Assembly: GCA_050084515.1 (NCBI GenBank)
Contig: CM114271.1
Location: 47,616,001 to 47,680,000 of the forward strand
Direction: 5' to 3'
DNA length: 64,000 nucleotides
Origin: Blasia pusilla
Lineage: Eukaryota
Shown here: positions 9,820 to 64,000 of the stretch, in pieces
Numbering within the stretch: position 1 is the first letter of the stretch
Layout: the number at the start of each line of letters is the position of its first letter
Program-made: the position numbers and the translations under genes
Notes under the pieces: generated by a model
Told to the model about the DNA's origin: nothing
What the model saw: the letters and a program-made list of their open reading frames with translations, nothing else
The model's database searches: none

Positions 9820-10130
9820 TATAATAGGTAGTTCTACATTCCGACTTGTATCTGTGACATGGATGACAAGAAGGCGACTAACGATGCAGCCACATGAGCG
9901 TCTGGCCTTCTTGCTCTTAGCGTCCGAGAGATGTATGTCATGGTAGGTAGGGATAGATGGCTATTTGGAGTTAGAAGGACCTAATCACCAGCTAGGGGGG
10001 CGATTGGAGATATTTTGGTACTTCTTGTCTCGTTGTTTGGATGCCATGAGTTAGCATGGGATCGTGCGTATTTGTGTGTGTGTTCAGTGACAACGATGTA
10101 TGTTGTGTAGCGATGTGTATGCGCACGACA

Positions 10131-23783: not shown

Positions 23784-23816
23784 CTTGATTTAGTTGTGGG
23801 GTCTCGATGTATATGT

Positions 23817-23819
<3 letters not shown>

Positions 23820-23847
<28 letters not shown>
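23820..23847. repeat. (TA)n microsatellite
   Basis: About 14 perfect TA units. Confidence 0.95.
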
Positions 23848-23850
<3 letters not shown>

Positions 23851-30600: not shown

Positions 30601-33600
30601 CAAATGGTGGTCCTTGGAACTCAAGGCAGCCATTGCCAAACGAAGGGAAGCGTATGTCACAAGTGCCAAAGCCAGGGACAATGCATCCTTGTGGGCAGAG
30701 TATGTGGCCCTACGCAAGGAAACCCGTCTTCTCGTGCGCATGCACAAGAAGAAAATGAACCAAGCCACATACTCATCCATCAATGAGAATTTCACTGAGA
30801 ATCAGAAAAAGTTCTGGATGGAAGTGCAGAAATTGAGCAAGGCCAGGGACAGAAACGACGTAAAGGCCTTGAAGAGAAAAGACGGTGGAATGGTGACCAC
30901 AGCTAAACAGATCCGACATGTGTTGGAAGGCCATTACAAGGAGTTAGGCAGGAAGCCCGCTCGGACATCCCTTGAAGAGCAGAACTTCGAGAGGGTGGTG
31001 GAGGATTTTGTTAAGATACAACGGGAGAAGGCAGATGATGAGGTTGAGCTGGGCAACCCATATAATGATTGGTTCTCCCTGGCTGAGGTGGGAGCAGCGA
31101 TCAAAGAACTGGTGAACCACAAAGCAGGCGGTGGTGATGAGCTTGTGAATGAGCTGTTGAAGTATGGGGATGCTGCCATGGCTCGTTCTCTAGTGAGTCT
31201 CTTCAACCTGGTCTGGCGGGCAGAAGTCATCCCACAAAGATGGCGGATGGGAGTCATCGTGAACCTCTTCAAGAAGGGTGAGCGAGAAGACCCTGGAAAC
31301 TACAGGGGTATTACATTGCTGAGTGTAGTCGGGAAGCTCCTCTGCCGTATACTCAACAATAGGATCTCTATGTACCTGGAGGAGAATTCTGTCATCAAGG
31401 AAGGCCAGGCTGGCTTCCGGCAAGCCCGAGGATACGTGGACCACATCTTCACCTTCAGTCAGATCATCCAGGGTAGGAAAAAAGAGGGGAAACCCACCTA
31501 TTGCTTCTTCTTAGACCTCAAGAAGGCATACGACACTGTATGGCGTGACGGGCTTTCTTATAGCCTGTGGAAGGTGGGGCTGAGAGGGAAAATGTGGAGG
31601 GTGGTGGAGAAGATGTACCAGAACACAAGGAGTAGAGTTCTGGTAAAAGGCCAAAAGAGTGGGACATTCGACATCAAGCAAGGAGTGGCTCAAGGATGCC
31701 CGCTCTCCCCCACCCTCTTCAACATTTTCGTGAATTCCCTACTGGAAGAAATGGAGGATAGTGGACTAGGCATACGGGTGGGCAACAACTCTATTGTTGC
31801 CCTCATGTTTGCTGATGACTTTGGTGGCCTTGAGGTAACAGGAGAGAAACTCCAAGAGATGATCTCCCTGACCAAAATCTGGTGTGACATGTGGGGCATG
31901 GAGGCAAATGTACTGAAGTGCGGTGTGATGATTTTCAATGGCAAGGAGGACCAAGACCAACAGTGGTACTGGGGTGACCAAGAGATCCCCCGTGTGGCTA
32001 CCTACACCTATCTGGGCATAGAATTCTCGGAAGATTGCATGTGGGATGCACACATCAAGAAGACTACTGAGAAAGGCCACAAGAAGGTGAACGGTCTGTC
32101 CAGATTCCTACAGTGCCGGGACATCACATCAGAAGTAAAGCGCTGTGTCATTTTGCATACCATTCATCCCTCGCTGGAATACGGGGCAGCAGTGTGGGAT
32201 GCCAACACCAAACAAAGGGATAGGCTTGAAGCTGTGCAGCTGAAGGCGTTTCGGGGTATGATGTCAACTTCATCACGAACAGCCCGCGTTGGTGTGAGAT
32301 CAGAACTAGGTGTGGAACCCTTGGAGGATAGACGTGACATCGCCAAGTTGAAATGGCGGAGGCAGCTGGAGACAATGGACTCCCATCGCTATCCTAAAGA
32401 GGTGATGGGGAAAACCTGGACCCAAAGAAGACCCGTAAAGCAGGCCAAATCTTGGACGAAAAAGGTTCAAGAGATTGTGCAAGCATCCAAGCTCCCAGCA
32501 GGGCCTGAACTGTGGGAGCAAGATGAGAAAGCATTTGTGGATACCATAACCAAAGCAGTGGGCAAACGCTCACAGCAGAACAGCATGGAGGAAGCCATGA
32601 AAATGTCTGACCTCTCTCTTTTGACGGTATATCCCGAGAGGGCAGAACTGAAGAACTATTTGCGGGGAACCCCTTGCTTGGGAACCCGGCTCAAGTTCAA
32701 GTTCAGGACGGGGGCAATCCCCTTGAACCATAAGAAAAGCAGGATGGGAACACAACTAAACTCTTGCGCCTTGTGTGACGATGGGGACGAAACCTCTAGT
32801 CATTACTTGGTCTCCTGCGCAAAATTCACAACACACAGAGCAAGAGCATATGCTGATATTGCTAAGCTGGTAGCACCAGAATTGTTCAACACATTCAGTA
32901 GCCTTGATTCATTGCCCAAAGCTGCTGCACTGGTAAGTAATGTCTATTGGGGATCCCAATCAGGTAAAGTAGATTGTGTGGTGAAGAGTTTCTTGGTTGA
33001 CACTTGGAAGCTCCGCACAAACACGTTGTTTGGTCAGCACTCACACTATATGAGAGTGTCTCCCTCCTCTCATATGGTACCTTCTTCACTTGCTTCTCTC
33101 TCTACACCCATCCCAGTCTCAAGCACCGTCCAACCAGGGCGCGGGGTCTATGGTCGCAAGGCTACGACAGGCACTACTTAATGAGTACAGTCTGTGGGTG
33201 TGGTGAGATCCCCAGTTAGGATTGGAGCATGGTCACAAATATACACTGCGAGCTCACAGATTAGGTTCACAGTCGTGGACCTAATCTTCCTTCCTTCCTC
33301 TCATCTGCCTCAGATATGCTATCTACCTAAGTCTTTCCAAGACCAGCTGCATGCTTATCATTACAAAATGGATCGAGTTCATTCTGGAATTCTTACACGC
33401 ACTCGGTCGGACAACGATACACAGAGAGAACACATGACGACTGAGGACAAATGCAATGATGTGTTCAAAATTAAGAATTGGTGCTTGATGGAACCTTGAT
33501 TAAATTCTGAGCTTCAGCTGGACTGATCCCAGACTGCACTATGTTCCAATAGCACGTATTGTATTGATTATTTACATGGCCTGCAAATTAGAGTCCAAAA

Positions 33601-40500: not shown

Positions 40501-42679
40501 GCCTTGATTTAGTCTGGGATGAAATAATGCTACATTTCAGTAAGGTACTTGTCCGCTTCAAAGTTTCTGAGAGCAGGTTATCTCCATGCTGTAAGTAAAC
40601 ACTTCAATGATAGTCAAACTTTTCCTTCTCTGAGTCTTTAGAGGCCCACCTCCTTGCAAGCCTACTACGGCTAGTAGAAGTCCATGTCATTGTAAACTAA
40701 GCTTACTCTGAAATTGCAAGTCGCTTCATTTTCAGAAAGGACACGTAGTGAAGGCACTCGTCAACTAAAGGTGATGCGCTACTTTCACAAACTTCCGTGG
40801 CTGTTTCTGCTAGACTTGAAGTTTCATTTGTTGTCTAATATTGGGTTTGTCAATGTTCTTCACTGCAGGATCCAAAATACGGTGCAAACATTGTGAGAAA
40901 TAGTAACTTCGATAACGGTTTAGCTGACTGGTTCCCTCAAGGTTCTTGCCGGTTAAATATTGCTTCTGGAAGCCCCTCTTACTTGGGTGTTGCTGCACAG
41001 AGGTCCTTCATAACGACAGCTCCACCAGCACTAAGTGGAACCTTTCTGCTAGTGACAAATCGTTCCTATGATTGGGAGGGTCCTGCACAGATTGTAACAG
41101 ATAGAATTCAGCTGTTCATGTCCTATCAAGTCACAGCATGGGTTGCAACAAGGTCACATCAAGCACCAATGAGTTACAAAGTGGATGTTTGCCTGAGTGT
41201 GGATGGAAAGTGGCTACAAGGGGGCGAGGTTATGGCAGGTGAATCCTGGACGGAAATTGTAGGATCGTTTCGATTAGAGAAGAAGCCTGAGAAAGTGATG
41301 GTCTACCTTCAAGGCCCTGGCGCAGGTGTGGATATGATGGTGGCAGGACTGCAAATATTTGCAGTGGACCGATTGGCAAGAGTGCCTATGCTACGCGACC
41401 AAGCAGACAAAGTAAGTTAGCATCTGGACGAGGATTCAATTGTTACCCATGGACAGCCTATCCCTCTCGCGAGTGTGTGTGGAATGGCTCTCGGCATTGA
41501 CCCACGTCTAGATACTTAATTTTCTTACGTATCTTTGTTGACTTCGATTTGATTTGGTGTATGCAGGTTCGCAAGCGTGATGTGGTTGTAAGGCTTCGAG
41601 ATTCAAATGGGAACCTTCTTCCGCCAGGTACACGGGTTTCCATTAAACAAACGAGCAACAGCTTTCCAATTGGTAGTGCAATAAACCATTACAGTCTTGA
41701 GAATAAAGCCTATAAGAAGTACTTCGCGGAGACTTTCAACTGGGCAGTATTTGAGAATGAGCTAAAGTGGGGTTGGATTGAGCAGACCCAGGGTGTAAGC
41801 AAATTTGAGAATGCCGATGAACTCTTGGAGTTTTGCTTAACCAATGGAATACAATGCCGAGGGCATTGTATATTGTGGGAAACAGACGACACTGTCCAAG
41901 ATTGGTTAAAGATCTTACCTCCACCTCAGCTAGCGGAAGCCGTCCAAAACAGGGTCTCCAGCCTTTTGTCACGTTACAAGGGCAAGTTTCGGCACTATGA
42001 CGTTAATAATGAGATGCTTCACGGATCATTCTACAAGAATAAGTTAGGTCCTCAATTCCTGCCGTATGTTTTCCAGCTTGCCCATCAGTTTGACCCTGAG
42101 GCTGTACTATTTGTGAATGATTATCATATTGAGGACGGCTGTGATTGCAACTCATCGCCGTCGATGTACATCGAGCATATTCAAGATCTCAGAGCCCAGG
42201 GTGCCCCTATTGGGGGTATAGGTCTACAGGGCCACCTTGACGTTCCTGTCGGACCGGTTATTTGCCAGGCTCTTGATCAACTAGGTACACTAGGAATTCC
42301 AGTATGGTTCACGGAGGTAGATGTCGAATCTATCAACGAGTTCGTCAGAGCCGATGATTTGGAAGTGGTTCTGCGCGAAGCATTTGCCCATCCTTCTGTT
42401 GAGGGGTTTATGCTGTGGGGATTCTGGGAGGGTACCATGTGTCGGAAAAACGCGCAGCTAGTTGACTCGGACAAGAGAATTAATGCAGCTGGACTCAGGC
42501 TCAGTGCTCTAAAGCGGGAATGGCTAACAAACTTGGAATCTGAAACAAGTGGGAACGGCGAGGTAGTTTTTCGTGGGTTTCATGGCACATACACAGTATC
42601 GGTGGAGGGAGGGGGGGTCTCAAAGAACTTTGAAGTTGTGAAGGGTGTTGGTCACTTACAGGTTGACGTGGCTCTTTGA
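37556..42679 (+). CDS. Endo-1,4-beta-xylanase, glycoside hydrolase family 10 with three N-terminal CBM22 (CBM_4_9-like) modules, ~926 aa
   Basis: Exons 37556-37965, 38338-38500, 38958-38987, 39477-39820, 40166-40343, 40869-41411, 41567-42679 (2781 nt, GT-AG, phases consistent). Three N..F..G..GW/WxG..Q modules. GH10 motifs FENELKW, RGHCILW, DVNNE (acid/base), GLQGH, WFTEVD (nucleophile). Confidence 0.93.
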
Positions 42680-46230: not shown

Positions 46231-48257
46231 AAAGAGCACAATTGATGTTGAACATTACCGTAACTCTATGGAAAGTAATATTCCGGAACATGTGGAATGT
46301 TGTATTCAAATTTTTTTCTCACTTGAACATTGCAAAGTTGGTGTTCCTGCAAAAAATAATGCATTCAATCCCCGTGAGGAAGTTGGCTCGAGGGTTGGCT
46401 TGGTGTTGCTTCGGGAAACATGCTTTAGTTGTTACCATGTAAGTATGTTAATAAGTAGTGGTAGTTTAACCTAGTCAGGAGCGTTCCACAAGACATAACC
46501 GCATTGATCGTCCCGGAAAAACCTGTAGCGTCATCCGCACTGTACATCTTTCCTCTATATTAGTCATGGCTATGCGAGATAGTAGCAACTAAAAAAAATG
46601 CTTCGGATGGCCTCCATACCCTACCCCTGAGGTCTTCTCCTCTTCATAAAGTCTTAGCGGCCTAAACTCACGACCTCTAAGTTAGTTGTAACTAGAGTTG
46701 TCCCTAATCGCCACTTACGAAAAGACGCTTAGGATTAATCCACTCCGCTTGTCGATGGAATGGAATGAGCTTCTGGAATGGTGTTGGTGGTTTGGTTTGC
46801 ACTCGTAGTAGAACGGAAACCAATCGGCCTTGAACACACTGAATGGAGTGTTCAAATTGTGAACACCTCGCGAGAGGTGTCCAATATTGCCCGAAAATGC
46901 ACCTTCGGCGTTGAAGTTATTCTTTTCGTATATTCATTCTTCTCACAATGGAGACAAAAAGAAAGCCTTCATTCACCATGGGATTTTAATCTTAGATGAA
47001 ATCTCACAAAAATGCTTTCATTATAGGCAAATACAAAGTTCATGTCACATTTTTGCCTATTTTTTGCCTCAGAACTGCACTAGTACAAGAAAATGTACAT
47101 CCTGCACTAGAACCGAATGTGCTAGTAGCTCATCAGTCACAATAGCGCCTCCAAGCTTGCACCTGAAAATAGAAAACTCATACATAATCAACATATATGG
47201 GAGATGCAAATGGGGAATGCAAACTAACTATATGTACACAAGTTCTATCCATTCACCTGTTGTGAAGTTTCAAGAATGTATAGCATTCGGTATAGCAGGC
47301 TGGAGTGAGGCAAAAGCACGACCGTGGCCGAAATCCCTGCTCAACACAAACATGACAAACATGTCAAGGCAACAAGCAAGGGAGTAAACAGAAAGCTACT
47401 CAAAGTTGAAAATGCCAATAATGCAAAGAACAAAAAACATTGCAACGGAGTGCCTCACCTGTGCAAGGACAAAATGGCAAAACTAATCCTTCCATAAAAG
47501 CGGAAAAACTGATCCTTCCATCCATCTCCTACAGAAAATTCCTAAGAAACAGAACGAAGACACTCACATGAAGGAAAGCAGGGGGTTGGTATTCTGGCAG
47601 GAGAGAGGAAGAGAGGAGAAGAAGAGAGGAGAGTCTCTCTTCAAAAAAAAGGGCCAAATCCTCCTCCTCTCTTCAAAAATTTTTGACATATTTGAAATTT
47701 TTGTTTGCTTTCAAATTCATGAAATCTTTAGAAGAAAGTAGGTAGTGGTCCACATTCGGGCCTAAAGAAACCTCCTTTTTCCAGGGGGCAAAAAACAAGT
47801 AGACATCATAAGACCACTACATCACTCTCCATGTGAGCCTAAGTTTCTTCACATTGCCTGTCTCAGTCTACAATAAGCTGTGCCCAGGGGTATTTTTGTT
47901 GGAGGGCCATTGGCAAATAATTTGACCAGAAGTAGCAATCTCATCTCAATGAAATGATCAAATAAAGACCAACTTTGTGAAATGTGAACACATGAGATGA
48001 TAATTGAACCAAAATATTGTTAGCTGTCTGGAGTAAAGAGGAACTAATGTCCCTTCATTCAGATCCTAAATCTGAGAAACCGAGAAGCTGCACCCCTCCC
48101 AATCCGTCGGAATTTTACAGGTTGCAACTCTTGCAACCCGTCCGAATCAGATGGCTTGCACCCCTTGCAAGCAAGCTCACCATAACAAAGGAAAGATTTT
48201 GAGAAGTGATTCCATTCCACCCTGCACCCACGAAAATCCAATAGGTTGGGAGGAGGA

Positions 48258-49390
48258 AATGGCAATCCGACATGTAGTAGGAATCCTGCACATCTTAGAC
48301 AAGAAAAGAAGCCTACAACTGGTTTGACGAATCTAGGGGAACGAGCCAAAAGTGAAAAAGCCGGCCACAATGCGTCAGAAGTTGGTCTCATAGGAAAGAG
48401 TCCGATCACTCAAGCAGCCAACATGTCGGAATCCGACAGCTTGCCTGGAAATGGTTTAACATTTGCAGTGGTCAAAAAGTGAAAAGTTGCAACCCGTCGG
48501 AATCATACGAGTTGCAAAATTGTAATTCTGAGTAGCTAGAAGAACACAATCCACAAGTCCAAAAAAAATATTCATCAAACTTTTCCAAACACCATTATCG
48601 GTTGAAAAAATCTCGTCCTTTATTACATCCAAAGGAATCTCGGAAATGTACATTTGACCTAGTCTATGATTTCTTCAGCCTCGTCATCTACAAATCTACT
48701 CCTAACTCTCCTAGGTTCCTGTACAAAAGGAATGTCCTGGGATACAAGTGGTTCCTCTGGCCGATTGTAAACGGGGATAAAAAATGTTGGCGAATTCGAG
48801 AGCCTTGGCCGCCCCCTAGGTACACCATAACGGTCCCATGTAACGTGATTTGAGTCCCACCGCCTTCCTCGGCAGTATATCTTGTACGCTCTGCAATGTG
48901 ACACCCATCCAGTATCAATATGTGCTCCGTCCTTGGAAATACCATGATGGCAATCCAACAAGTAGGAGGAATCCAACATGTCTTAGAGAAGAGAAGAATC
49001 CTACGCCTTGTTTGACGATACTAGGGGAAGTTGCCAAAGTGAAGAAGCCCGCCAGAATGCCTCTAAAGAGTCTGAAAGAGTCCGATCACTCATGCAGCCA
49101 ACATGTCGGAATCCGACAGGTTGCTTGGAAGTGGTTAAAAAGGTGCAGTGGTCAAAAAGTGAAAAGTTGCAAGCTGTGGAAATCCGGCGGGTTGCAAAAT
49201 AGAAGTCCTCAGAGTACATAGACGATCATATTCGACAAGACCAAAAAAGATATTCAGCAAACTTTTACAAACACCATCATCGTTCGAAAAAATCTTGTCC
49301 TTTATTACATCCGAAAGAAGCTCGGAACTGTACATTTGATCTATTCTATGAAATCTTTTGCCTCGTCATCAAATAAATCCCTACTCCAAA
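48258..49390. repeat. Diverged direct duplication (~48258-48700 and ~48947-49390; ~690-bp period) inside the MULE
   Basis: Colinear blocks ATGGCAATCC..GTAG.AGGAATCC, GTGGTCAAAAAGTGAAAAGTTGCAA, GTCCTTTATTACATCC occur twice. Confidence 0.8.
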
Positions 49391-49426
49391 CGCTGCAGTC
49401 AAGCTGGATCCTTGAGTTCTTCGACC

Positions 49427-52400
49427 TTACTCGTCATCGTCCGAGAGCTCTTCCAAGATTACTGTCGGCCTTGCCCTCCCGATTTTCGGAATCGTAGGAA
49501 GTGACGATGGTGTCACTACCAATGGTGGGTCTGGAACCGGAGCTCTCGGCTTCGGAGGAGAGTTGTACGCCCCAACTAGCATGTCGTAATCTGCCTTTGC
49601 CTCCTTGCAAAGGTCAAACAGTTCCTGCCTTCCCTCAAGGCAGAGAATGTTCCTGCCACTCTGCCAGCCGCCTCTGATACTTGCCCCTGAAAGGCCCACT
49701 AAGTCAAATACCAAGTCATCCGGCCTTGAGCAGAGCTCGATGAGCGTTTGCATCAGGGCTGGCGACTTTTCCCTTCCTCCAAGTAATGGGGTACCGTCTT
49801 GCATGAAAATTCCCGGGGGAGGGGGGAATTGTATAAACTATCTAAGCTGTACCCATCGGAGCATGGATCCACAGGATCCAGGATCTTAAACACCTGGAAG
49901 TTGTGCTAGGGCCGAACAAAGTAGTAAACATAGGAGTGGTCCATCCGTAAAGAAGCACGTTGGAAACAATGTCAGCAACTTGGCCACTGGTCTACTCTCA
50001 GTGTGGTGACATAATGTGCAACACGTCCCCAAAGAACTTCGCTTAACCCAGAGAACTTCTTTATAATCCTAACATTGGAGCAACCTGTCGGAGTCCGACA
50101 GGTTGTTTAACAAGTGTCTTGTGATTTTTTTGTCCATGAGCAACCCGTCGGAAGGCGACAAGTTTCTGGCTTAAAGCAGCCCATGGTTGGCTAAGAGCAA
50201 CCCGTCGCTTTCATACGGGTTGCATCATTCTAGAAATTGCAAAAGCATTAGCACTTGCAACCAGTCGCTTTCAGACGGGTTGCATCATTCCAGAAAATTG
50301 CAAAAGAAATAGCACTTGCAACCCGTCGGGTTCCGACGGGTTGCATTCACCCAATGGAGACTTGCCCTCAAACTGTAATCCATCGCTTTCAGACGGATTG
50401 CAAAAAGACCCAGCTCAAACAATCCGATGGGTTGCATGCAGAGATGCAACCCGTCGGAGAAAGACAATTTGGATACAAATTAAGAGCCCTTATCCAAATT
50501 TGACTCGTCGCGGATCGGAGTGGGTACTCATTCTTGATGACCCACGATTGCGCCGTCCTCCACTTCAGCGACCTCTTGACGCACTGGAGGTTGAAGAGCT
50601 CATCCTCGCTCCCTCCAGTCAAAACTAAGAAACAGCCCCTGTCACTGAGATAAGCGTCTGCAAAGGAAAAAAAGGGCGCGATCTGGTCATAAGAAAGAGG
50701 GACATTCCAGTCCGGGACCCCGTCGGATGGATTCTCGTCCCACAAGCGCAACCCCGAGGGAAAATCAGCAACGAGGAGATCCACCGCCACCTCTTCGACC
50801 TCCCCATGGACCGTCTAGGGAGCGTGCCCATTTTGTTGAAGCTTTCATCCCAGCGTTGTCAATTTCTCGATGGCGGGTGTCGATGCTTGGGAACTGAAAC
50901 TTTTCAGCTCATCCAGAAGATTCGTGCAGTGAAGGATGACGCTTGTCCGGGTCGTTGTTTCTCTATGTCTTCCCAAGGATGATGTAGTGTATTCCACATC
51001 CTGGTCTGCTCCCTGGGACAACCCTGGCTCCTCTCGCTTCCGCTTCTCCCGAGTCTTCGGTTGGCTTGTTGGGGTCTCTATGACCTCAAACTCTGGTGGA
51101 GTTTTCTTTGCGTAGGACCTGGTCCGACCCTCTCTCCCCGCTCGCCCAGACGATTCCGGCTCTCGCCTTGAATCTTCAGCCTCTCTTTGGGAAGACTCGG
51201 CCTCGAAATTCTTCGATCCCCTCGCCTTGGCTTTGAGACCCGCTGTAGATTTGTCCTTAGCGATGACAACCTTGGACACCAACTCCGCTATCTCGAGGGC
51301 TTGCTCCTCCGCATCTCCTTCGAAAAAGTCTTCACGCTACACAAAATTGGGGATGTCATCCCTACCTGCTGCCACTGCATCATAGAGCAAGCGTAGATCT
51401 TTCTCAGTTATGTCCTTAGGGTCCTTGAAGTCCAGCCAAATCGGGCAATTCTCCACCTCCCAATCGGACATGCTTTGAGCCATCTCCATGTCGTACATGG
51501 AAAATGTGTCTCCATCAGGTGGAGAAGCCCACAATTTGCAGGCTGCCGGTATTTTTTGCCATGTACTTGCATTCTTACAATGGACGAGGTACCTGAACAC
51601 CATGCGTTGGGCAGCTCTTAGTCGAGATGCATCGGCCGCATGCTCTTGAAGATCTCGCTTCTTCTTTGCGAAATCCCTTTTTTCTCCTCTATTTCTTCGT
51701 CAAGGTCTGCCTGAGGGAGGATGCGATCCTTGAACATCGTCCTGAAACCAAGGTTTTTTATGGGCTTGTCCCGCATGTCATCAAGCCAAAGTTCAAAATC
51801 TTCAGCACTCTCTAGGTTTTCTTCCTCCGGAACTGGCTCTATTCTTTTCAGCTCCGCTTGGAGACCCACGAGCATGGACTTCCCAAGAAGCCGCAACGCA
51901 TCCCAAAATGACCATTCACGGAGCTAGTGGGAGATCACTCGATCAGAGACACCTGGAGGATGGTGTGCCGCCCTCTTTTGGGCCTCTGTGCCCTCGAGAC
52001 AGATTTTCATCAGTCGGATTCTCCTAAATTCGCTAATTCTAGTCAAGGCAAATTGATGCACGCGATCAAGAGACACTTTCTCCCCAATCCGACCCTGCGG
52101 ATGACATGGCGCTTGATGATCGCCTTCAGCTCCTTGTAGAAATCGGGGCCAAGTTTGGGGTTGAGAATGGCGATGTAGCGCTGCATCTTGCTTGTCGTGC
52201 CGAGTGCAGATCATCGCAAAGCATGGATGAACTTTGCACGCTCAGACACAGACACTTTCTCCCTCTGCTCCAGCTCCAATGCAGCGCTCTTCTTGGCGGC
52301 CTGTATCTTCGACCAGCAAAGGATTTTCACGGCTACATCTTGGGAAATAAACTTATTTGCCCAAGTCTTTTTTTTTATTTAAGCAACCTTTGCCAGCATC

Positions 52401-54399
52401 TCATTTACAAGGGCGTCGCCCAAGAACCCCTTGTACTCTGCCGCGTGCGTCGTTAGCACTTTCTTCACCCGATGGCAATCCTGGATCCAGTGGTGGGTGA
52501 CATTCCCCTCCGATACAATCCAGCACATCCGAACTCAATATTAGAAATTTTGCAAGGTACATGGGTTCCTGCAACTCGTCGGACTCCGACAGGTCGTCCC
52601 AGCTCATGGTCGGAATGGAAGCAATGAGCTAAATTTTGCAACCCATTGGAGTCAGACGGATTGCATTTAGAGTTGTGATTGCCTGGTTTCAACCTGTCAG
52701 ACTCCGACGGGTTGTCAGATTATCCATATTTAGAGAGTGGTTTCCGCGAAAAAAGTGAACATATCAACCCGTCGGAGTCCGACAGGTTGCGCGATTTCAA
52801 TTAAGGTGCAATTTGACCACAAAAATGTAGCTCCGCTACTTTCAAATGCAACCTATCAGACTCCAACCAGTTGCTTTCAGCCAGAAACATCAAAAAATAG
52901 CTTCGAGTCTAGCAACCCGTCGGACTCCGACGAGTTGCTTTCTTCAAAAAACATCCAAAAACAGCGGTGAGTCGAGCAACTTGTCGGACTCTGACGAGTT
53001 GCTTTCGGCCAAAAACATCCTAAACGAGGGATCAGTCGAGCAACCCGTCGGACTCCGACGAGTTGCTTTCGGCCAAAAACATCCTAAATGAGTGATCAGT
53101 CAAGCAACTCGTCGGAGTCCGACGAGTTGCTTTCGCCAAAAACATTCCAAAAACAGTGGCGACTCAAAAACTTGTCGGAGTCCGATAGTTTGCAGCAAGA
53201 GGAAACTTACGTGTTCATGGCATGCATGGCCGTCTCCACCGTCGCCATGTGATGAGGGTATGGATGTAGCACCACTGCCTTCACGCAAAAATGTGCCTCC
53301 AATGAGTTTGGGCGCTCCTCTGCAAACTGGGTCCATGCCATGAACTTGTGGTTTCCATCCCAGATGAAGAAATACAAGTTCTGCATCCAGCAGAATTCCG
53401 TCCCCTCTATCGCCCTTCTGAATTCTTGTTGTCTCATCCTCCAAAATGTGTCGAGCGCTTCCAAGTCCTCCTCCGTAACCAACGCTTGGGTTCCATGGTC
53501 ATCATAAGATTGAACATAAGCTGTCGACGTAGGATGTTGTCGCTGCCAATTGTTTCAGCTTCGCAATATCCTCATCAGATTGAATATCGCGGACGTACTC
53601 CATAGTTCGCAATTGGCAAAGTGGAATTCTCGGGGCGTATTGGCCCTCCATCAGTGCCATCTGCTTTACCACCTGTCACAGCGGGGACAAGGTCAATAAG
53701 CTACACTGAATTTCCAATGAATTGCAACATGGGCCTTCACATAATTCAGTGAACACTGATCCTCTCTTACCCGCTCGAAGATTGAGTCGGTGTCTAGGCC
53801 AGCCAACTGCTCTGGGACAGCAGCTGGCAAGTCCACTGGAAACTCATCGATCCGATAGAGGTTGATTTCTTCCGCCAGGCTTAGGGACGAGGATGACATC
53901 TCTCCTGCTTCTTCAGCTATATCCACCATCTCCACGCTGGCGGTCCTCATGACCTCATCGTCCGTCACTTGAACTTCGGTCATTTATGGTATATTGATTG
54001 TGTCCCCGGACTTCATCGGGGACATTTCCTGCATCTCAACACTTTTTGTTGGATGGGCAAGGCTTTCTTCCATGGCAATTGCTTTTTCCCTCCGAGCTTT
54101 TGCCAATTCTGCTCTCCTCCCAACGCGTCCAGACGCTTCTTTTCTCGCTTTTCGTCGGCGACCCTTTTCTTCAAGGCATGCGACGCCTCAACCTCTGCAT
54201 TCTGTTTTTCGAGCGCCTCATGTACACGTTTTGCAAGAAGCTCTTGCTTGTGCATCTCCGCTTCCCTTTCCAGCTCCTCGATTTCTTGCTGCCTTATCTC
54301 ATTGGCCGAACGAGGCCCTGGAGATGGTGAAGCAGAAGTCCTCATGGACTTGGGAGTGAAGCTCCCACCCTTGTTTGCTTGAGATTTTTTCCTCGTCAT
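49427..54399 (-). pseudogene. Multi-exon gene: coiled coil, ParB/Sulfiredoxin-like domain, helical/low-complexity linker, beta-class N6-adenine/N4-cytosine methyltransferase-like domain
   Basis: ParB-like: RIPLCQLRTMEYVRDIQSDEDIAKLKQL (~53545-53630) and YFFIWDGNHKFMAW (~53330-53375). MTase: VDLLVADFPSG (motif IV, ~50755-50785), FADAYLSDRGCFLV, then EKSPALMQTLIELCSRPDDLVFDLVGLSGAS...SGRNILCLE (motifs X/I/II, ~49635-49770). Introns 53770-53673, 53210-~52570 and ~50490-~50050. Several stops and frameshifts. Confidence 0.75.
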
Positions 54400-55917
54400 T
54401 GTTTCCGAAAATGCCTCCTATGGACAAGGAAATTTCTCTCTGTGCACGATGAATTGGCTCGAGGAATCTCCTTTATGAGTCGCCTTGCTGATATCACGAT
54501 GAGTCACCTTGATGAGCAGCTCGAATCGTCTCGTGATCGTTCGCTTGAATCGTCTCACGACGAGTCGCCGTGTAAAGCGCCCCTTGGTATCTGGTCAGCT
54601 GCTGCGCGGAAGAGCAATTGAGATCACGAAATGAAAAACCAGAAATGAGCGAGCCTTCCCCTATTTATACTTTTCGAGCCGTTGGGCTGACCGTTGGGTC
54701 GCATCGTCCTTCGACGGCGACGTGCCGGCCGTTATGGTAGTCTAGACATGAAAAAAAACCAACCCGACGGCTTCGACAGGTTGCACCCTTCCCGAGGGTT
54801 CAAGGCATCCATCCTCGTGGCAACCCGTCGGAGACCGACAGGTTGCGCGCCTCCGTCATCTTCGGACAAGAACACGAGGTTCCCACGCAACCTGTCGGAG
54901 ACCGACAGGTTGCTCGCCTATGCTATCTTTGGACAAGAACGCGAGGTATCCGCGCAACCCGTCGGATTCCGGTGGGTTGCACGCTTCCCTCATCTTGGGA
55001 TAACAAGGCGGGCTTCCCGCGCAACTCGTCGGAGGCCAATAGGTTGCACGCTTCCTTCATGTAAGCGTAACAAGGTAAGGCACTTGCGCAATCCGTCTGA
55101 GGCCGACGGGTTGTGCGCCTCCGCCGTCTTTGGGCAAGAAGGTGCGGCCTGCCCAACTCGTCAGAAAGAGACGGGTTGCACACTTCCTTAATGTAAGTAA
55201 CACAAGGTGAGGAAATTGCGCAACCCGTCTGAGGCTGACGGGTTGCGCGCCTCCGCCGTCTTCGGGCAAGAAGGCGTGGCACCCATGCAACTCGTCGGAG
55301 ATTGACGGGTTGCACGCTTCCTTCATGTTAGCGTTACAAGGTGAGGCACAAGCGTGCAACCCGTCCTGAAGCCGACGGGTTGCACGCTTTGCTTATGTTC
55401 GGTTAATAGGCGAGGTACCAGGGTTCCCCGTTGGTTATCGATAGGTTGCACGCTTTTCTATCCCTCGAGTAACAATGCGACAACGCATAGTTCGGAGGCA
55501 ACCCATTGCAATTCGACGGGTCACAAGATCTACCCTGAGTTGGACAATCTCGCAAATGTCCCCAACGATTGGTTGCCTTAGCATATGCAAGTGATATCTT
55601 GTGTTGATGCTAGCAAAATTGACTCAAAAAACCTTTGGTCGGCAAGAAGGGGGTATCAACCCAACGGACTCCGACGGGTTCCAACAAAAAGAAGTGCATG
55701 CTTTGAAACCAACGTCTCTGATTCCCAAATTCTGCAACCCACCTGACTCCGAAAAGTTGCGACAGAATTGGATCCATTGTGTCAGATATTTTCAACTACC
55801 ATACTTCATCTTGTCAGTCAAATCCTGTCAGGAGAATCTGAGTCCCTATTCACTATAAATTAAAAATTCTCATTCGCATTCTCATACCAATTCTCTGTCT
55901 CCTCTCGGTGGAATCTT

Positions 55918-58900
55918 TTGGGAATGGACAATTATGTGAAGCTTACTTGTGGCTGTCATCTAGCGGCCCTTCCTCAATCAGAAATCGTTCGACCGCAAGC
56001 TCGTGAGTCTTTCATGGCAGTGGATGAAAATTTTCTATTAGTTCAATTTCTTCTCCAAATTAGAACCATCTTTGTATCCAAGGATGTTAGGGTGGACGGT
56101 ACGGAGGACATTATAGGTGAGATAGTCCAGCCACTGATTGTAGACCGTAAAGTATGGAATCTCCTAACTCTAGCAAATGGTCAATACAGAGTTTACGGCT
56201 TGCCCCTGAATTCCTCTGTTTCCCAAGTAGACGGTCGAGAACTTCCTAGTGCACCGAGCTCTACGTTTGCAACTCCTAGCTCAGTAGATCCGGCTTCGAC
56301 TCCAACTTCAAACGCTCGTAACAATGTTGTACTTCTTGAAGATATTCCGATGTTTTCAACCTCAGTGGATCTGTCGGACACCAACCGGGCCCTCTGTCCG
56401 CCTACTCATTCCTCTTGCGAGTATCAGGCAATAGTTTGCTATCGTCTCTGGCCTTGAAAATGTTCAAGCACATTCTTGTCGACAAGCTGCCATCCACGTA
56501 CGATGGTAATTGCATTTTTGAGTTGCCTCCACTTGCTGCTCCTGCTCAAAAGAAAGATGGAGGATGCTTGAAGGGTATGGACAGAAAGTCTGATTGTCAT
56601 CGATGGTGCAGGCTTCAACGGACTAGTGCTTCAATTCCAGATGGTCCTTGGATTGTCTCCCGCCACCAATGCGTTGGAGCCTTGGAGTGTAGAAGTCCAG
56701 CATGCCCGTTGTAATGTACAAGTGTTTCTATTTTATAGTCGATTTAGTAAGTTCGATCCCCAAGAGGATCATTGCTTGATGAAAAGAGAATTCGGAATTA
56801 CAATTTTGTTGTAATAGTTGTATTCAAATGTGTGTGAGTTATATTCAATGTCTTATCAATATCTTCTGATCTTTCTTAGTACCAAAGGATCTTTTCTCGA
56901 TTCTCTCTAGTGGAATTGACAGCATGTTCAGGTAGATTTTCCTCTCGACATCAAGAAACCTCACAGAGATTTCAACACAAAAGCTGGCTTCTCCTACTTT
57001 CGGAACTCAATCCGTCTCGGTAGGTTACTCTCTGTCAAACAGATTTCCTACAACTCATGTTGATTATTTCACTGATGAGAAAGGTTTGCCTAATTCACTC
57101 CTCATTCTGCAGACCCAAAAATAATACTCAGACATAGGCATCGCACACTAGAATGAATGAATGATTGCTTTACTACTCCATCAAGAACGAGAAAGCTTCA
57201 AAGTGTATACAAGCTTGAGAGGGTACTTCTCTCTTGCTCGGACCATTCCTACAGCATGAGGACTTCGTAAGAGAATGATGATTATGGCTTCTGCCTTGCT
57301 TCTTAAAGATTCGCTCGAGTGGAAGTGATCCTAAGATTCGAAACGTTCTTGATGAAGCTAGTGTCTCTTCACTATTTCTAACTACCTAGATCTATGGTTC
57401 TCTTAGCTTTTCCTACGATTCCTGTGAATCCGTAGTACAAAACTGTTCTAACTACCACTTTGATACAAAGGGTCGCGCCCTTTCCTAGTCATGTTTTAAC
57501 ATGTGTCTCTTGAAATCACAGTCCTTCTTAGCTTCGCTTCGTTGGACTTCAGGAGGACGAAGTACTCCATGCTTCGTTCTTATCTCCTGTGCTTCGTGCT
57601 TCGTTAAAGAGCGAAGTACCTCATTCTTCTTTTCTTTGTGATGCTTGGTTATGTAGCGAAGCACTTCTTAGACAGAGCTTCGTACATCTTCGTTAAGCTT
57701 CGTTAAGCTTCTTGAGACTTCGTTATTGCGTTTTCCTCTCCTCTAAGGCAAATCCTTGATCTTCCATCTCTCTGCCTTGTCCCAGGAGCTTCGTGATTCA
57801 CTTATTCTTCTTCATAATAATAAATAATCATAATCAAAATCATAATATACAAGAGTCTTCGTTGAATAAAAAGATATATTCTTCAAGATTACAAAATTGT
57901 GGGTATCACACCCGTATCTAGAGTGCAACGGGCGAGTCAATACGTCGCAATTCCCCCCCAAGAATGCAGAAACTCCATATGAGGTCGGTGCCACCATACC
58001 GCCGGGAGGCCATCGATGTCCTCATTGTCACGCATCCCCCTTCTGTGTTGGAGCGTGTACTGCATACATACTTTTCATTGTGCACGACTTGGGCTCCACG
58101 TCAGAGTACACAAGGTTGGTAGTTCATGTTGGCTCCCACACTCATCCTGTGACCGATGCAATTCAGAGACACATCAAGGAGGATATCGCAAAGAAAGTGG
58201 CCAAGGTCTATAGAAACTCTCCGGGTTCAAAGCCGGGAGTGATCGAGCTCACAACAGCATCACAAATTTGTGAACAATTGCTTGGCATCCCTCGATAGGG
58301 CGAGATCACGGCTGCTGAGGAGAAACAAGTGTGGGAAAATCTCGCATTTCTCGCTGATCCTCAATGCTTCCGAAATTTGTTGCATCAAATACGGGTACTG
58401 GATGGAAAGACGGCCGAAATGGATGCCATTGCTAGAATCAAGGCCAACTCCAGATTTCCATTCATTCAGAGATGGTAGTTCATGGGCCAGGGAGGCGAGG
58501 GATCCTGGGCCTATCTCTTCAAAATGTCAACCACAGGTCTGTCGAATGAGGGAAGGGGAAGATCTTTACGGGAGTTGGGTAAGCTTTGATATTTGCTAGA
58601 GAGTGCTGAACGGATGGTTGATAATGGGTGCTCATGTTTATGACCATGTGGAGAAGGGACTCAAAACTATATTTGTCTATGAAGTAAAAGCAGAAGACGT
58701 TGGCAGTTTGAAGATGTGCTGGTTACTCTTATTGGAGGTGGTGAAGGAAAACAAAAGGCCACCTCCGGAAATTTATGGGTTCATGGCGGACAATGCACAA
58801 CCTGGATGGATTGCTATGAGGGAAGTGTTCTAGGGTGGAGAGGTTCAACCGGAGAGGGAAAGGTTGGATGCTTTCCATTGGCAACAGTTTGTGACCCGGT

Positions 58901-61089
58901 ACACCAAATCTTGCATCAAGGAGAATAAGAAGACAGAGCATGTCACTATACTCCAACGGTGCAAGGACAGCAAAACCTTGAAACAGGCCATGGAATGCCA
59001 AGAAGAACTTCATGGGTGGTGGAGGAAGCATGCGATTGAGGGGAAGTACAAAGAGTTGTGCTCTTGGTTGAGTTGGTGGACTGTACGTATGAGACAATGG
59101 GGAAACTTCATGCGGCACGTGACTTCACTATTTCGTCTTGTCAAGCTCACGCTGAGAATTGTTTGAAAAGTTGCAGCTCAAGTTGAGAAGCGTGGGAACT
59201 ATAGGGATTTCAAACCGAAGAAACCAAGAAATTTTCGGATGCGACGGGTTGCCCAAGTGTGCAATCCGTCTGAAATGGACGGGTTTCCTGAGTTTGCAAC
59301 CAGTCGGAAACCGACGGGTTGCATCCAGAATTTTGGTGTAACCCGTATACAAGTATGCAAATCGCATGCATACAAGGCCTGCAAATAGTTCGACCCGGAT
59401 GGGTTTCGGATGACTTGCACTTGGATCTTCCAGCCCGGAGTGGCCAAAGGTTCTTGCAACCCGTCGGAATCGGACGGGTTGCAGTAGGTGTTTCCTGGGT
59501 GTTGCAACATGTCGGAACCCGACGGGTCGCAGAGTTTGACTTCTGAGCTATTTTCGTTCCCTTCTAACATTTCCGTCGTTGCAGGGATTGAACATTCATG
59601 AAAATGCCCTTTGCCCCAACACAAGTGGAGCAGAAAGTGTTCATTCCTCCTGGAGGTCGTCACAAGCATGCCAACAAATTTCACTTGTGGAGGCATGCCA
59701 ACAAGACCAGGCAAGAGCAATCTTTGCGATCTGCAAAGCATCCCATATCTTCCTCACAAAAGGCATAACAAAAGGAAGGGGCCTTCAATCTACCAAACTA
59801 TATGTCGTATGCGGTGTGAGATCGGTGATGAGAAACTCTATGTGGAAGCCTTCAACCGGTGCGTAGCAGGAACTCCCCTCGAGCAAGACGTACACATTGG
59901 TGGGGATATTCGTGGGCGCGTTTCAAGACGTCCCATACAGATGGTGATAGAGCAGTCCGAGCGAGACTCGTGGAGACCATATAAGTATCTTGACTTCAGG
60001 CAAGTGAAGAGGCAGCATCAAGGAACAAATCCGGTGATTGATTTGGATGAGGAAATTATGCCGCCCAGGTATTTGGGGATCCCGGACCGCTCCCAAATCC
60101 GTGATGGAGCAACTTCTCCAAAATCAGTGAATGTTTTATTTCAAAAGCCCTCGGTTGCTGGAAGTTCGCAACATCCGGTCGCTGGGATGGTTCAACAATA
60201 TGGGATTCCGGTAATGGAGGTGGATTGCAACCTAAAACGGTGCCATATATCTCGGAGCAACCCAGGACGTGGACCCAATTGCAGGGCAGGATCTGATGTC
60301 ATAAGGAGAGCATGCGGCACTTTCCTAAATAAGAACTGTACAAGGACTGGACGACCACTGCCTGGGTTTTGGGGACTCAAAAACTTTGATCATTTCACGA
60401 GGACCGCGGATCAATTGAAGTACTTCTTCTGCCCAAATGAATCTTGCGCTTTCCGCAAGTCTTATCCGGCTGCCATTGGAGCTCTGGGGAATACCCCCAC
60501 AATTTGGCCCATTGCCGCAGGTACGAACTGCATTCAAGACGAAGTGGACAATCTTACAAGTGCCGATTTCAGACTCGTAGACGGAGGAAGTTCGGAGCAT
60601 GTTTGCATTACAGAGACCTTTCCATTTCGTATTCAACCCAATATTGACGTCAACATGTACCCGAAGAAGGTGGATAATCTCAATCCACTATTTGTGTTTG
60701 AGTCTAGAAATGGGGTGAAGAGAAACAGAATGTATAGGCCAACGGTGGAGAGAGTAAAGCGAATTGCATCAGCTCGGGAGGCAAAAATGGAGATCATCGC
60801 CACGAAAGATGTCCTGAGTGGCAATGGAATAGGAAGGATGTATTGGGTTAGGAACAACACTGTAAATTCAAGTGTCACAGGGGTGTATGTGGTGCACATC
60901 TCTTGCTTTCCCACATGTTCATGTGATGACTTTGTCCAAAGAGAGACAAGTGGCAAAAGATATTTCCCTTGTAAGCACATGTACTATGTGTTGCTGGTAG
61001 TTTTAAGAGAGTCGGAGGTAGGAGTAGGAATCCACCAACCAATTCTGTCCCTCAAAGAAGTGCAAAGTATTTTAAACAAACCACTTTGA
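55918..61089 (+). pseudogene. Mutator-like transposase (GCM/WRKY-type Zn domain, DDE core, SWIM), disrupted by a solo LTR
   Basis: HQCVGALECRSPACP|YLECNGRVN...CPHC...C...HVGSHTHP rejoins in frame after LTR removal. Core motifs VSFD, GFMADNA, AFHWQQ, then intron ~59119-59584, then TSGAESVHSSW (catalytic E). SWIM motif CSCDDF...PCKH at ~60915-60980. Confidence 0.85.
56710..57910. mobile_element. Solo LTR inserted in the MULE transposase
   Basis: TG...CA, 1201 bp, 5-bp TSD CCCGT (56705-56709 / 57911-57915). Homologous to 14310-15738. Confidence 0.93.
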
Positions 61090-64000
61090 GGATGCAAAAT
61101 GAGGTTTTAGATTTTTTTTTCATTTTTCCAGAACCTTCACTTTGAGCTTGAACTCTATTCAACCTAGGGCAAATGATAGATTTTTTCCAAACCTTGGATG
61201 GAAAAAGTGATTGGTTCCACACTTATGATTCCACTGATTTTTCAGTTTTCTAAATTTTGTGCAATTTGCAACTCGTCGGACTCAGAGGGGTTGCCAAAAT
61301 ATGGAAGAGGAAAAAAAAACTATGGGACTGCTTAATAACTGAGCAAAAAAGTGCAAAAAAATTCACACAAAAAGTTTCCTCTCTTCAACCCAACGGAAAC
61401 TCTCTTTAAAAAAAAGTATCTATTTCCTCTCTCCTCTCTCCTCTCTCCTCTCTTCCTCTCCTCTTACCGCACCTCAAGGAAAGCACAGTGCCAATTGTGA
61501 ATACCTCTACACTAAGGGATAGCTCAACATCACCAAGACGGTCTGGAAAAGGAATGCCCCTAAAGGAAAGACAATGGCACATAATATAACTCGCAAGTAC
61601 CTCTGAGGTTGCTCGTAGCAACAACATCACCATAGAGCTAGAAGATATGCTAAGTGCATTTTAACATTTCTGGTGGACTTCAACTACACACATAAGGGCA
61701 AGTAGAAGGTGGTAAGAATGATGCCAAAACCTATGATCCACAAAATAGGCGGAATTCCCACCAAAAAAACTAACACTGCTCCTTGCAACTACTATGTTCA
61801 TACTTATAAATTTTCCTCGCCGCATTGCTGTCTATGTCCCAGCATCTACTGTCGTAGTTCTGACCCTCCACTTATGGACAAGGTACCCACTTCAAAACCT
61901 TGCAATGATGGTGTCAAGAAGATAGGCAATAGAGTGGAATTTGGTCCCCACATTCCACACCAGGCTGCTGGTCCTCACTTGGGCCGCACACTATAGTCTA
62001 GAGAACTTCATCTCCGTGCACACATTTCAATATCTTCTTGATCAAGACTGAAATGTAAAGTGTCTAAAGCACACTTCACTTCCTCCATGAAACTAAGGCA
62101 CGGTACTTAAACTCAGGGAAATTAAACATGGTCCACCACATCATCGCCATTGTTCAAGTTGATTGGAGAATGCAAGTGATGTCCATCCCTTCTAGACACC
62201 TAAAAAAAAACATGTAGCGTTTCAATGACCGGGTCATACACACAATCAGAAAAGATAAACATTTTCAAGTTGAAGGGTTATCATGCTGTAGTATACTTGT
62301 GAGTGGAAGTCTAACTCAAAGTTCTTCTTCATTTGGCCAAGTACATCTTTCTCCTGATTTTCATGGCTTCTTTAGTTTTGCCATGTTTAGGAAAAACTAC
62401 AGGCTCACCCTGGTCCTCGACTTGGTCAGGACTAGAGGAGATACGGGACGAACGCCGAGATGGACATAGACCTCTTGAAACCGGGTTCATGGTTTGATAG
62501 GCTGGCTTTTCAGAAGCAGGTGAGCTCTTGCCCATGAATGCAGCAAACATATTTTATAGTTTCAAGATTACAGTGCCGATTCTCCCCGTCTCCCTTGCAC
62601 AATGGAACCTATGTAAGAACATTACCAACCATACAAGTAAGCAAAGAATGGTTACGTGGGCATTCAAAGACAGGTTGCACATGTCCATCATGCAAAGAAA
62701 AGGTGCAATGTTTTAGAAGAGGATGAGAGCATCCGCATAGTAGTGATATTCGACTATGTTGCATAAATACTTCTGAGCACATAAATGGAAGAGCCGAATG
62801 CCTGTAAAATTTTTGACTTTGAATAACGATATTCCATCGAACTAACGGCTGCCACCAACTTAACCCATTACCCCTACAAAAGTAGACATAGGGTTGTCTA
62901 CACGTGGATCAACATCTAAAATCTACATACAACTGAGCCCTATGACTCATAGGGCCCAATTTACACAGATACAAACACGATAATATTCAAGCTACAAACA
63001 AGTGAATAAGCATTAGGTGGTATCCGGAATTGACCACGGAAATCTACAATCTCTACTATTTTAGGGTGTTCTAGTAGGTTTTCAAGATGTTGAAGATTGT
63101 CCATTACTTGCACATATAAGAGCATGAACAACGTCATTAATTACTAGCCAACACTACGCTAGATCATAGCATGTATGTGAAGTAAAAAAGGAAAGTAGGA
63201 TGTATGCAACGAGCTTACCACGAGCTAAATTGAGAATGGCGAAGGAGTTGATAACTTCAGTCAAATCTAAAGGCTCGTCTTTCTCCACAAGTACGTTATC
63301 ATCTACAACAGTCTAGTCGATAAGGTAGATGCTCTTAGGAGTGAACCCAATCACCCAAGGGTTTGAGTTTTTTTCGTCGATATTATCTGTTGTGTTTAAT
63401 CTTCTCTTTAGTTGAATCATGCATACAAATTTTGATACCATGTTGCCTTGTGATGCCTTCATAAGATTCTTGATGTGTGGAATCCTCTAGGCTTTCATCT
63501 TCCCTCTCTCATTACCAACTACCAGAAACTCTATTTTTCCTTGCTTGTGGAAATAGGAATCAAACCAAACATGATTCCCCACCATGCGTGCTTTTGGTGA
63601 GAAGGCCACGTTGTATCCGGAATTTCTTGATGCAAGTTCTAAGCAATAGTAGGTATCTACATGAAACCCCAGGATTATCCAATCATCCAAATAATTTTGG
63701 GATTTCTCGTGGGATTGCTTGCATATAATGTTAGCTAAACAGAATTGGGCACATGAGTCCGTGTGAATCATGGGGCTCACCCATGTTTCGACCGACTCTT
63801 GAAATCCAGAAAGAAACGTGTAACATCTGTGAGAAAACAGAAAGTGACGAAATCACTGAAATCTTTACAAAACTTAGAGATACAAAGTGGCCTAGTCCGT
63901 CCGTGCGCTCACAGAAGAGCTTCGATAGAACCTGAATTGGGAGATAACTCGACATACGAGAATGCACTACCGCTGCGGCTCCTGACTATTTGACTACTCG

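Follow-up and report, generated by a model that had tools for sequence, protein, structure and literature searches.

Does a DNA transposon in a land-plant genome carry a protein directed at its own copies, and would such a protein be a working DNA methylase? These questions are raised by a 64-kb stretch of the Blasia pusilla genome (contig CM114271.1, positions 47,616,001 to 47,680,000; hereafter the window), in which a 13.9-kb element at 47581-61475 holds two divergent, head-to-head genes, a transposase on the plus strand and a multi-exon accessory gene on the minus strand. A first-pass annotation had described it as a Mutator-like element (MULE) bounded by a target-site duplication (TSD), with a second gene, proposed to be a capture from a prokaryote-type source, that fused a ParB/Srx-like domain to a beta-class amino-methyltransferase (MTase) and might serve in self-marking. 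The TSD-bounded element, the minus-strand gene beside the plus-strand transposase and the MTase-type domain of that gene are all supported by the present analysis; the ParB-like domain, the prokaryotic capture and the active methylase are not. The reading we favor, at a probability of roughly 0.55, is that of a decayed copy of a high-copy Mutator-like DNA transposon whose accessory protein, with its MTase fold, may act at the element's own palindromes.

The limits of the element are given by the 10-mer AAGGAAAGCA, which flanks 47581-61475 as a perfect repeat and occurs only twice in the 64 kb (mean of 0.22 occurrences in shuffled sequence, with 0 of 100 shuffles reaching two). Terminal inverted repeats are long in many MULEs and lacking in the non-TIR (terminal inverted repeat) ones; here, an alignment of one end with the reverse complement of the other reveals weak inverted similarity over only about 75 bp, imperfect and largely GA-rich. 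Seven RNA reads (run X18) carry unrelated sequence up to exactly 47581, as would be expected if this terminus were common to other copies. Within the transposase-like gene, the motifs SFDIC, FMADNAQ, LDAFH and AESVH can be picked out by eye in what we take to be the Mutator order of D, D, [C/D]xxH and E, and the SWIM region reads CSC...CKH (CxC...CxH). In a language-model atlas, the nearest named clusters to a 495-aa open reading frame (ORF) of this gene also carry SWIM, at weak scores of only 0.79-0.80. We therefore call the element Mutator-like provisionally, from its TSD length, its SWIM finger and motifs read by eye.

Evolutionarily, the last ~260 amino acids of the accessory protein are supported, through homology and a modeled homologue, as a strongly diverged beta-class (PF01555-type) N6/N4 amino-MTase fold. 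The last exon (49427-49837) matched PF01555 with an E-value of 0.0043 and 17.5 bits over profile positions 165-220 of 221, three DNA-methyltransferase families in PHROGs (E 0.0016-0.028), and eight MTase models in PADLOC (best E 2.1e-4); the PF01555 gathering cut-off of 26.7 bits lies above both this exon and its homologues (13.6-26.5 bits). When 1.84 billion representatives were searched exhaustively with phmmer, just four proteins reached E <= 1e-3 and none reached 1e-10, namely a 758-aa hypothetical protein of the moss Ceratodon purpureus and three protein fragments, each of the four with a sub-threshold PF01555 match (best P0004, 26.5 bits). Ceratodon paralogues, KAG0605740.1 among them, are found on at least four chromosomes, and residues 400-680 of one Ceratodon protein (P0001), used as a query, matched Ceratodon paralogues only (three). 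No prokaryotic or phage protein fell within E 1e-3 of the exon among the same representatives, no relative appeared in single-exon scans of viral, prokaryotic-genome and metagenome contigs, which reach close relatives only, and a comparison of the exon with longer proteins gave no homologue; a recent capture of a prokaryote-type ParB-MTase, as first proposed, thus loses its footing.

The upstream exon (50389-50814) has no Pfam match of its own and gave chance matches only when its MTase-like sequence was searched with phmmer against PDB sequences. Against Ceratodon P0001, BLASTP aligned it with 27 of 92 residues identical (E 2e-8), placing VDLLVADFPSGL over IDMIFADAPEGL and, in the loop itself, ADFPSG over ADAPEG. 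This motif-IV-like block, VDLLVADFPSGL at 50749-50784, is encoded upstream of a block resembling the S-adenosylmethionine (SAM)-binding region, REKSPALMQTLIELCSRPDDLVFDLVGLSGAS...CLE at 49634-49774, which is the beta-class order (catalytic loop N-terminal to the SAM block) that had been read from the sequence at first pass. A family profile (A3) detected M1.HpyAVI (E 9.1e-6) and CcrM (E 0.018), aligning GSREK...DlSAsTGAS...lalE with HPTQK...DPFMGSGTT...IGIE. Structurally, an AlphaFold model of P0001 (mean predicted local distance difference test score, pLDDT, of 32.9; 26-66 when averaged in blocks of 10 residues across 431-640) had 47 Foldseek matches at E <= 0.001 (best E 2.1e-10), the top rows being all beta-class N6A/N4C MTases (CcrM, M.BceJIV, M1.HpyAVI, bdelloid N4CMT, M.PvuII, M.MboIIA and M.RsrI). 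VIA-align superposed model residues ~385-645 on CcrM with a Z of 15.2 (196 residues, root-mean-square deviation 3.9), and reached Z 13-14 for M.MboIIA, M1.HpyAVI, M.PvuII, M.BceJIV, N4CMT and M.RsrI. Matches of this specificity support both the fold and its permuted beta-class order.

Functionally, the domain departs from known enzymes at its catalytic loop. Active amino-MTases carry DPPY, SPPY, NPPY or DPPW, summarized as (D/N/S)PP(Y/F/W), and an SPPY to APPA exchange abolishes N4CMT activity, according to the cited part of PMC8885841. The loop reads D-F-P-S in the window and D-A-P-E in four of four Ceratodon paralogues; neither fits (D/N/S)PP(Y/F/W), and both are without the second proline and without an aromatic residue. 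In motif I, DLVGLSGAS and DWSANTGAS stand opposite DPFMGSGTT of M1.HpyAVI, with the F and first G lost and with the D, second G and '..lE' glutamate retained. Because the loop is non-canonical in both readable lineages, methyl transfer appears doubtful, and with it the active self-marking methylase; of the beta-class claim, homology and homologue fold stand, but the supposed catalytic motif IV is D-F-P-S and not DPPY. The domain has nonetheless been preserved. Among Ceratodon paralogues, it is 92-97% identical versus 55-88% elsewhere in the proteins, residues D45, A52, S53 and E68 of the SAM block are invariant across seven family sequences (alignment A2), and window and Ceratodon, two lineages only ~29% identical in that half, have the loop's D, P and G in common. 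As the best-conserved domain, with D, P and G common to two lineages, it seems to be under constraint, and we take it to be more likely a DNA- or SAM-binding module than a canonical writer of N6-methyladenine (6mA) or N4-methylcytosine (4mC).

Profile and fold searches thus bear out the MTase part of the annotated fusion and fail to do so for its ParB part. The ParB-like exon has no match in Pfam (E <= 1), nor in PHROGs, NCBIfam, PADLOC or PDB sequences (E <= 10); no homologue was found among longer proteins, nor by BLASTP against P0005. Its IPL...VR and WDGNHK pieces lie in different frames of a frameshifted exon. A single-sequence AlphaFold2 model (pLDDT 57) gave no Foldseek match at E <= 0.001, and the best Z in a wide VIA-align search was 3.1, from what is a low-confidence model. 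The sole lead comes from the language-model atlas, where the exon falls with a cluster of 11% ParB_N members at 0.93 and with DUF6551 at 0.91. The Ceratodon proteins have nothing in common with the ParB-like part or the central region, hhalign of the Ceratodon alignment against the central ORFs of the window detected no homology outside the MTase-like domain, and the central part (50815-52241) has no Pfam match. A short intron in place of the frameshift was considered and rejected, as the one acceptor in the right phase comes with a purine-rich tract and its use would leave out IPL...VR.

How common is the element? We mapped one DNA run (X13, ~1.97 billion letters) and three RNA runs, all under the same species label, to 47400-61700 at >=90% likeness. 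A total of 54,912 DNA reads fell on the stretch, 307 of them >=99% alike, 11,716 at 95-99% and 42,889 at 90-95%. Summed DNA depth reached 935-1105x in the majority of transposase bins. Over the accessory gene (49785-54554) it was 213-380x, rising to 900x at the last exon of that gene and dropping to 87x over part of the intergenic array. Since reads >=99% alike, at ~3x over the whole stretch, cap the single-copy depth, we estimate for this high-copy family no fewer than some 100 copies of the accessory-gene region and several hundred of the transposase. The accessory gene is absent from, or more diverged in, most family copies; at 213-380x and 900x against ~3x, it is nevertheless a component of the family and not a one-off capture, in agreement with the first-pass annotation.

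RNA reads were few (297, 432 and 305 in the three runs), and their depth was low and strand-consistent, with minus-strand-type RNA over 48354-49784 at 4-9x (7-9x at the last accessory exon) and plus-strand-type RNA over 58371-61232 at 1-11x (2-10x at the transposase gene). Most are 90-95% alike to the window and so derive from other copies. Two short pieces behaved differently. In each of the three runs, 13-23 reads cover only the 128 nt of 48812-48939 and continue at either end into the same unrelated sequence; every one of them carries G at 48897, as do only about a quarter of the DNA reads, and the piece looks like a fragment of one family copy exonised or embedded in another transcript. 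The other piece, of 75 nt (56981-57055), lies within the nested long terminal repeat (LTR)-like insert and likewise has constant unrelated flanks in all three runs (6-27 reads), with both strands represented in one run.

The present copy is dead, as both genes contain in-frame stops and frameshifts and the transposase is interrupted by a solo-LTR-like insert. The transposase has stops at 58597 and 58831 and differs from most copies by indels, with an added G after 56348 in 389 of 668 DNA reads and two fewer bases at 59735 in 576 of 668 (indel region 59722-59735). The insert is missing from most family copies, with 792 DNA reads joining 56704 directly to 57911; once it is removed, the transposase frame is continuous by eye (...SPACP joined to YLECNGRV...). 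At 83-91% identity to pieces of 14342-15612, it is probably a solo LTR whose retrotransposon family occurs upstream in the window as well. In the accessory gene, 116 of 187 DNA reads have an additional A after 54119, which extends the first ORF as far as a stop immediately ahead of the following ATG. From 52241 to 50389, a single frame can be followed through four in-frame stops (51924, 51337, 50845 and 50815) and a frameshift at 51677, where 144 of 324 DNA reads have an extra T that merges two ORFs into a 221-aa stretch. An intact accessory protein is predicted to measure on the order of 1000 aa.

A candidate target of the accessory protein is a 27-bp palindrome, GCAACCCGTCGGAnTCCGACGGGTTGC, that is specific to the element. 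All 14 of its matches in the window (<=3 mismatches) lie inside the element, at 48489-61294, with 0.00 expected, as do 57 of 57 matches of its half-site, at 48099-61294, with 0.93 expected. The palindrome is carried by four tandem arrays, all in non-coding parts, with the coding blocks avoided, and one unit of the 64-bp array (52848-53153) is predicted to fold into a hairpin (z -4.7). Separately, a ~300-bp direct repeat downstream of the accessory stop (48394-48688 and 49074-49370, 84-85% identical, 680 bp apart) carries palindrome half-sites in each copy.

Thus, we posit a cut-and-paste transposon in a land-plant genome, with a DDE-type transposase bearing a C-terminal SWIM finger on the plus strand and an accessory protein that would recognise the element's own 27-bp palindromes in introns, the intergenic promoter region and subterminal regions. 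Once bound, this protein may influence the state of chromatin or of DNA at family copies, like VANC or the proposed PAG2/PAG3 cassette discussed below, with the methylase-like domain serving as a DNA- or SAM-binding module and a D-x-P-x-G loop in place of the catalytic (D/N/S)PP(Y/F/W). Taken by itself, such a self-directed DNA-binding or chromatin module at the arrays is a tentative proposal, well short of even odds. The arrays could instead be transposase-binding or recombination-prone foldback repeats, with the accessory protein employed elsewhere, for example in host-factor mimicry. Subterminal transposase sites occur in other DNA transposons, half-sites are also found near both ends here (48099-48501 and 61268-61294), and many DNA reads have opposite-strand rearrangement joints at palindromes (for example, 50108/50341 and 55666/59455); most palindrome copies, however, sit in arrays well inside the element, 2.5-7 kb away from both ends, which better matches the VANC and PAG3 precedents, and we consider this account somewhat unlikely. 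An active 6mA/4mC amino-MTase that marks the element's own copies would suit the beta-class fold of the homologue model, the four invariant SAM-block residues, the near-identity of the domain among Ceratodon paralogues and the ADxPxGL loop kept between window and Ceratodon. It is made improbable by the missing second proline and aromatic of DPPY, SPPY, NPPY and DPPW, by the lost first glycine of motif I, by PF01555 matches that all stay under the gathering score, and by the loss of N4CMT activity once S and Y of SPPY are replaced (cited part of PMC8885841).

The MTase-like gene might also be a passenger, captured from the host in Pack-MULE style and of no function for the element. A gene depth no more than one quarter to one third as high as the transposase depth, the many stops of this copy and RNA from the 3' exon only are in line with such a capture. 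On the other hand, a depth of 213-900x places the gene in many copies, its introns and a divergent upstream region of its own have been retained, and the search of 1.84e9 proteins showed as its only relatives multi-copy moss paralogues and three fragments, with no single-copy host gene among them, which leaves a passive capture very improbable. The superfamily itself may be questioned, in that an element without a Pfam MULE, Transposase_mut or DBD_Tnp_Mut match could belong to a Zisupton/KDZ-like or an unclassified SWIM-bearing lineage, the more so as PAG2/PAG3-type genes also occur on Zisupton and Plavaka elements. The by-eye D...D...D-x-x-H...E motifs, in the presumed Mutator order, speak against this. 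So does the 10-bp TSD, which falls inside the 8-11 bp given for MULEs in the cited part of PMC6446971 and fits neither the 8 bp of Zisupton nor the 3 bp of EnSpm/Plavaka-type elements (PMC12730594, cited part), and so does SWIM as the commonest zinc finger of the MULE table in PMC6446971; a placement outside Mutator is thus decidedly improbable.

Several observations weigh against the reading we favor. No link between the accessory protein and the palindromes has been observed, and the latter could be transposase sites; the conserved D, P and G of the loop, with the invariant residues resembling motifs I and II, could equally mean a working, if unusual, active site. The structural support comes from a low-confidence model of a homologue ~30-40% identical to the window and not from the window protein. 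On the transposase side, the terminal inverted repeats are weak, the SWIM match is under the Pfam cut-off, and none of MULE, Transposase_mut or DBD_Tnp_Mut was matched at E <= 1 in searches with single ORFs and with the core (58243-59166) read through its stops as X. Across the three RNA runs, RNA covers only the 3' exon of the accessory gene, with a depth of 0 over 53601-54554, and an accessory-gene splice joint is absent among the joints listed.

The closest known counterparts are found in red algae. The cited part of a Bostrychia moritziana preprint (bioRxiv 10.1101/2025.02.11.637652) describes giant Plavaka transposons with accessory genes, among them PAG2, which combines PF01555 with SET, and PAG3, which combines an N-terminal ParB-like domain (HHpred E 0.29) with a 2-oxoglutarate (2OG) oxygenase and is adjoined by inverted-repeat tandem arrays; PAG homologues are reported there on Mutator, Zisupton and Fanzor-type elements of other red algae. 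Compared by description only, the PAG2/PAG3 elements (Plavaka, Mutator, Zisupton) and ours are large DNA transposons with a PF01555-type accessory protein, a weakly supported ParB-like N-terminal domain, internal inverted-repeat tandem arrays, mostly degenerate copies and weak expression. They differ in that methylase plus SET and ParB-like plus 2OG oxygenase make up two genes in the algae, whereas both parts would share one gene here, and in that the host here is a land plant; the window gene has no SET or oxygenase match in Pfam. The architecture, which the first-pass annotation did not know from any MULE, is therefore not unprecedented, to the extent that the cited part of the preprint describes it. 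A second counterpart is VANC of the Arabidopsis VANDAL elements, non-TIR MULEs, which acts on motifs tandemly repeated in the non-coding regions of the element (cited part of PMC5735166). Again by description, both cases are MULE-type elements with an extra gene and short motifs amplified as non-coding tandem repeats, and the proposed logic of sequence-specific action on the element's own copies is the same; binding and anti-silencing are demonstrated for VANC and conjectural here, and VANC is not reported as MTase-like in the cited part of PMC5735166.

The beta-class MTases themselves (CcrM, M.RsrI, M.PvuII and M1.HpyAVI, with the eukaryotic bdelloid N4CMT and Marchantia DN4MT1) agree with the family in permuted order, in the fold of the homologue model and in a SAM block that aligns at K, D, G-A-S and E, and differ from it in that the family has a D-x-P-x loop, has lost the first glycine of motif I, scores below the Pfam cut-off and has no close prokaryotic relative among the 1.84 billion representatives. 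DN4MT1 is reportedly a eukaryotic beta-class case, going by its preprint's description. METTL14 and MTA9 are inactive MTase-like partner subunits, and like them, and like the MTase domain of the DIRS1 retrotransposon, the family keeps a methylase fold with substituted catalytic residues, possibly for nucleic-acid binding; these examples belong to other MTase clades, and for the present family inactivity is only predicted. The DIRS1 domain is given as inactive in the cited part of PMC4738411 (Iyer et al.), which also traces eukaryotic methylases to phage ParB-terminase loci and describes ParB-helix-turn-helix-fused Dam-type enzymes of chlorophytes and chytrids. As extra motifs of MULEs, the cited part of a survey lists FAR1, SET, PMD and OTU and no methylase (PMC6446971), and searches of the open literature, apart from the supplementary tables of PMC6446971 and of the Bostrychia preprint, turned up no plant MULE described with such a gene. 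The element is thus a variation, in a land plant, on a theme already known, with an altered catalytic loop, a Mutator-like backbone and, if the ParB part is real, a single-gene fusion. It would be a long shot to go further and see a fused ParB-like/methylase-like protein on parS-like 27-bp palindrome arrays throughout the element's non-coding DNA, either writing amino-methyl marks through a D-x-P-x-G site or shielding the copies from 5-methylcytosine silencing, homologous to PAG2/PAG3 and part of an ancient self-recognition system spread across Archaeplastida DNA-transposon superfamilies.

Table 1. Features of the element at 47581-61475 and its flanks, in window coordinates.
Feature	Position	Strand	Remarks
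Left target-site duplication AAGGAAAGCA	47571..47580		1 of 2 occurrences in window
Left terminus, weak GA-rich terminal inverted repeat	47581..47655	+	Alignment with reverse complement of right end
All copies of 27-bp palindrome GCAACCCGTCGGAnTCCGACGGGTTGC and half-site	48099..61294		
Accessory gene, last exon, C-terminal half of MTase-like domain	49427..49837	-	Motif-I-like DLVGLSGAS 49679-49705; stop 49427-49429
Array, 61 bp x 2.5	50197..50346		Between the two MTase-like exons; carries palindrome
Accessory gene, N-terminal half of MTase-like domain	50389..50814	-	Motif-IV-like D-F-P-S at 50755-50766
Accessory gene, central part	50815..52241	-	One reading frame; no recognised fold
Array, 64 bp x 4.8	52848..53153		Intron after ParB-like exon; carries palindrome
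Accessory gene, putative ParB/Srx-like exon	53207..53672	-	IPL..VR and WDGNHK pieces; frameshift ~53506-53556
Accessory gene, 5' part	53771..54398	-	Charged ORF from ATG 54398; stop 53984-53986; then MTEVQ... to GT donor 53770; predicted exon structure
Array, 67 bp x 7.6	54820..55326		Between divergent genes; carries palindrome
Transposase gene (broken)	55864..61089	+	Cys/His-rich N-terminal part; core motifs; SWIM finger
Array, 35 bp x 2.3			Transposase intron; carries palindrome
Nested solo-LTR-like insertion, 1206 bp	56705..57910		TG...CA ends; 5-bp duplication CCCGT; interrupts transposase exon; foreign to family
SWIM finger	60886-60999	+	PF04434 E 0.0031, 17.4 bits vs cut-off 19.6
Right terminus, weak GA-rich terminal inverted repeat	61401..61475	-	
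Right target-site duplication AAGGAAAGCA	61476..61485		Second of 2 occurrences in window

Elsewhere in the window, a single evident host gene lies near the element, one for a plant-type xylanase at 40839-42679, whose ORFs match CBM_4_9 (E 5e-14) and glycosyl hydrolase family 10 (E 1.4e-49). Retroelements are represented by a 1041-aa ORF with RVT_1 (30056-33181, E 3.4e-33) and a 190-aa ORF with RT_RNaseH (7745-8317, E 5e-35). The xylanase gene, the RVT_1 ORF and the moss Ceratodon as nearest named relative of the accessory gene mark the sequence as land-plant DNA. Inside the upstream LTR-like region lies a 141-nt inverted repeat (14936-15076 and 15582-15722) that is 97% complementary, with arms 505 nt apart. 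Positions 1-10000 and 18001-24000 stand out from the rest of the window by a strong positive GC skew (0.10-0.34 per 2-kb bin) at a G+C close to 0.5, and a repeat of 18097-18509 lies at 23388-23786 (88-90%).

Genes with which a transposon acts on the chromatin or DNA marks of its own copies are known from few elements, among them those with VANC, the fungal TET/JBP carriers, retrotransposons with DNMTs and the red-algal elements with the PAG cassette. A high-copy family with a methylase-fold accessory protein and element-specific arrays would extend this theme to land plants, and it offers a concrete, testable pair in the accessory protein and the 27-bp site. Additionally, a beta-class MTase fold that seems to be kept under constraint with a rewritten catalytic loop bears on the origin of pseudo-enzymes or of new specificities.

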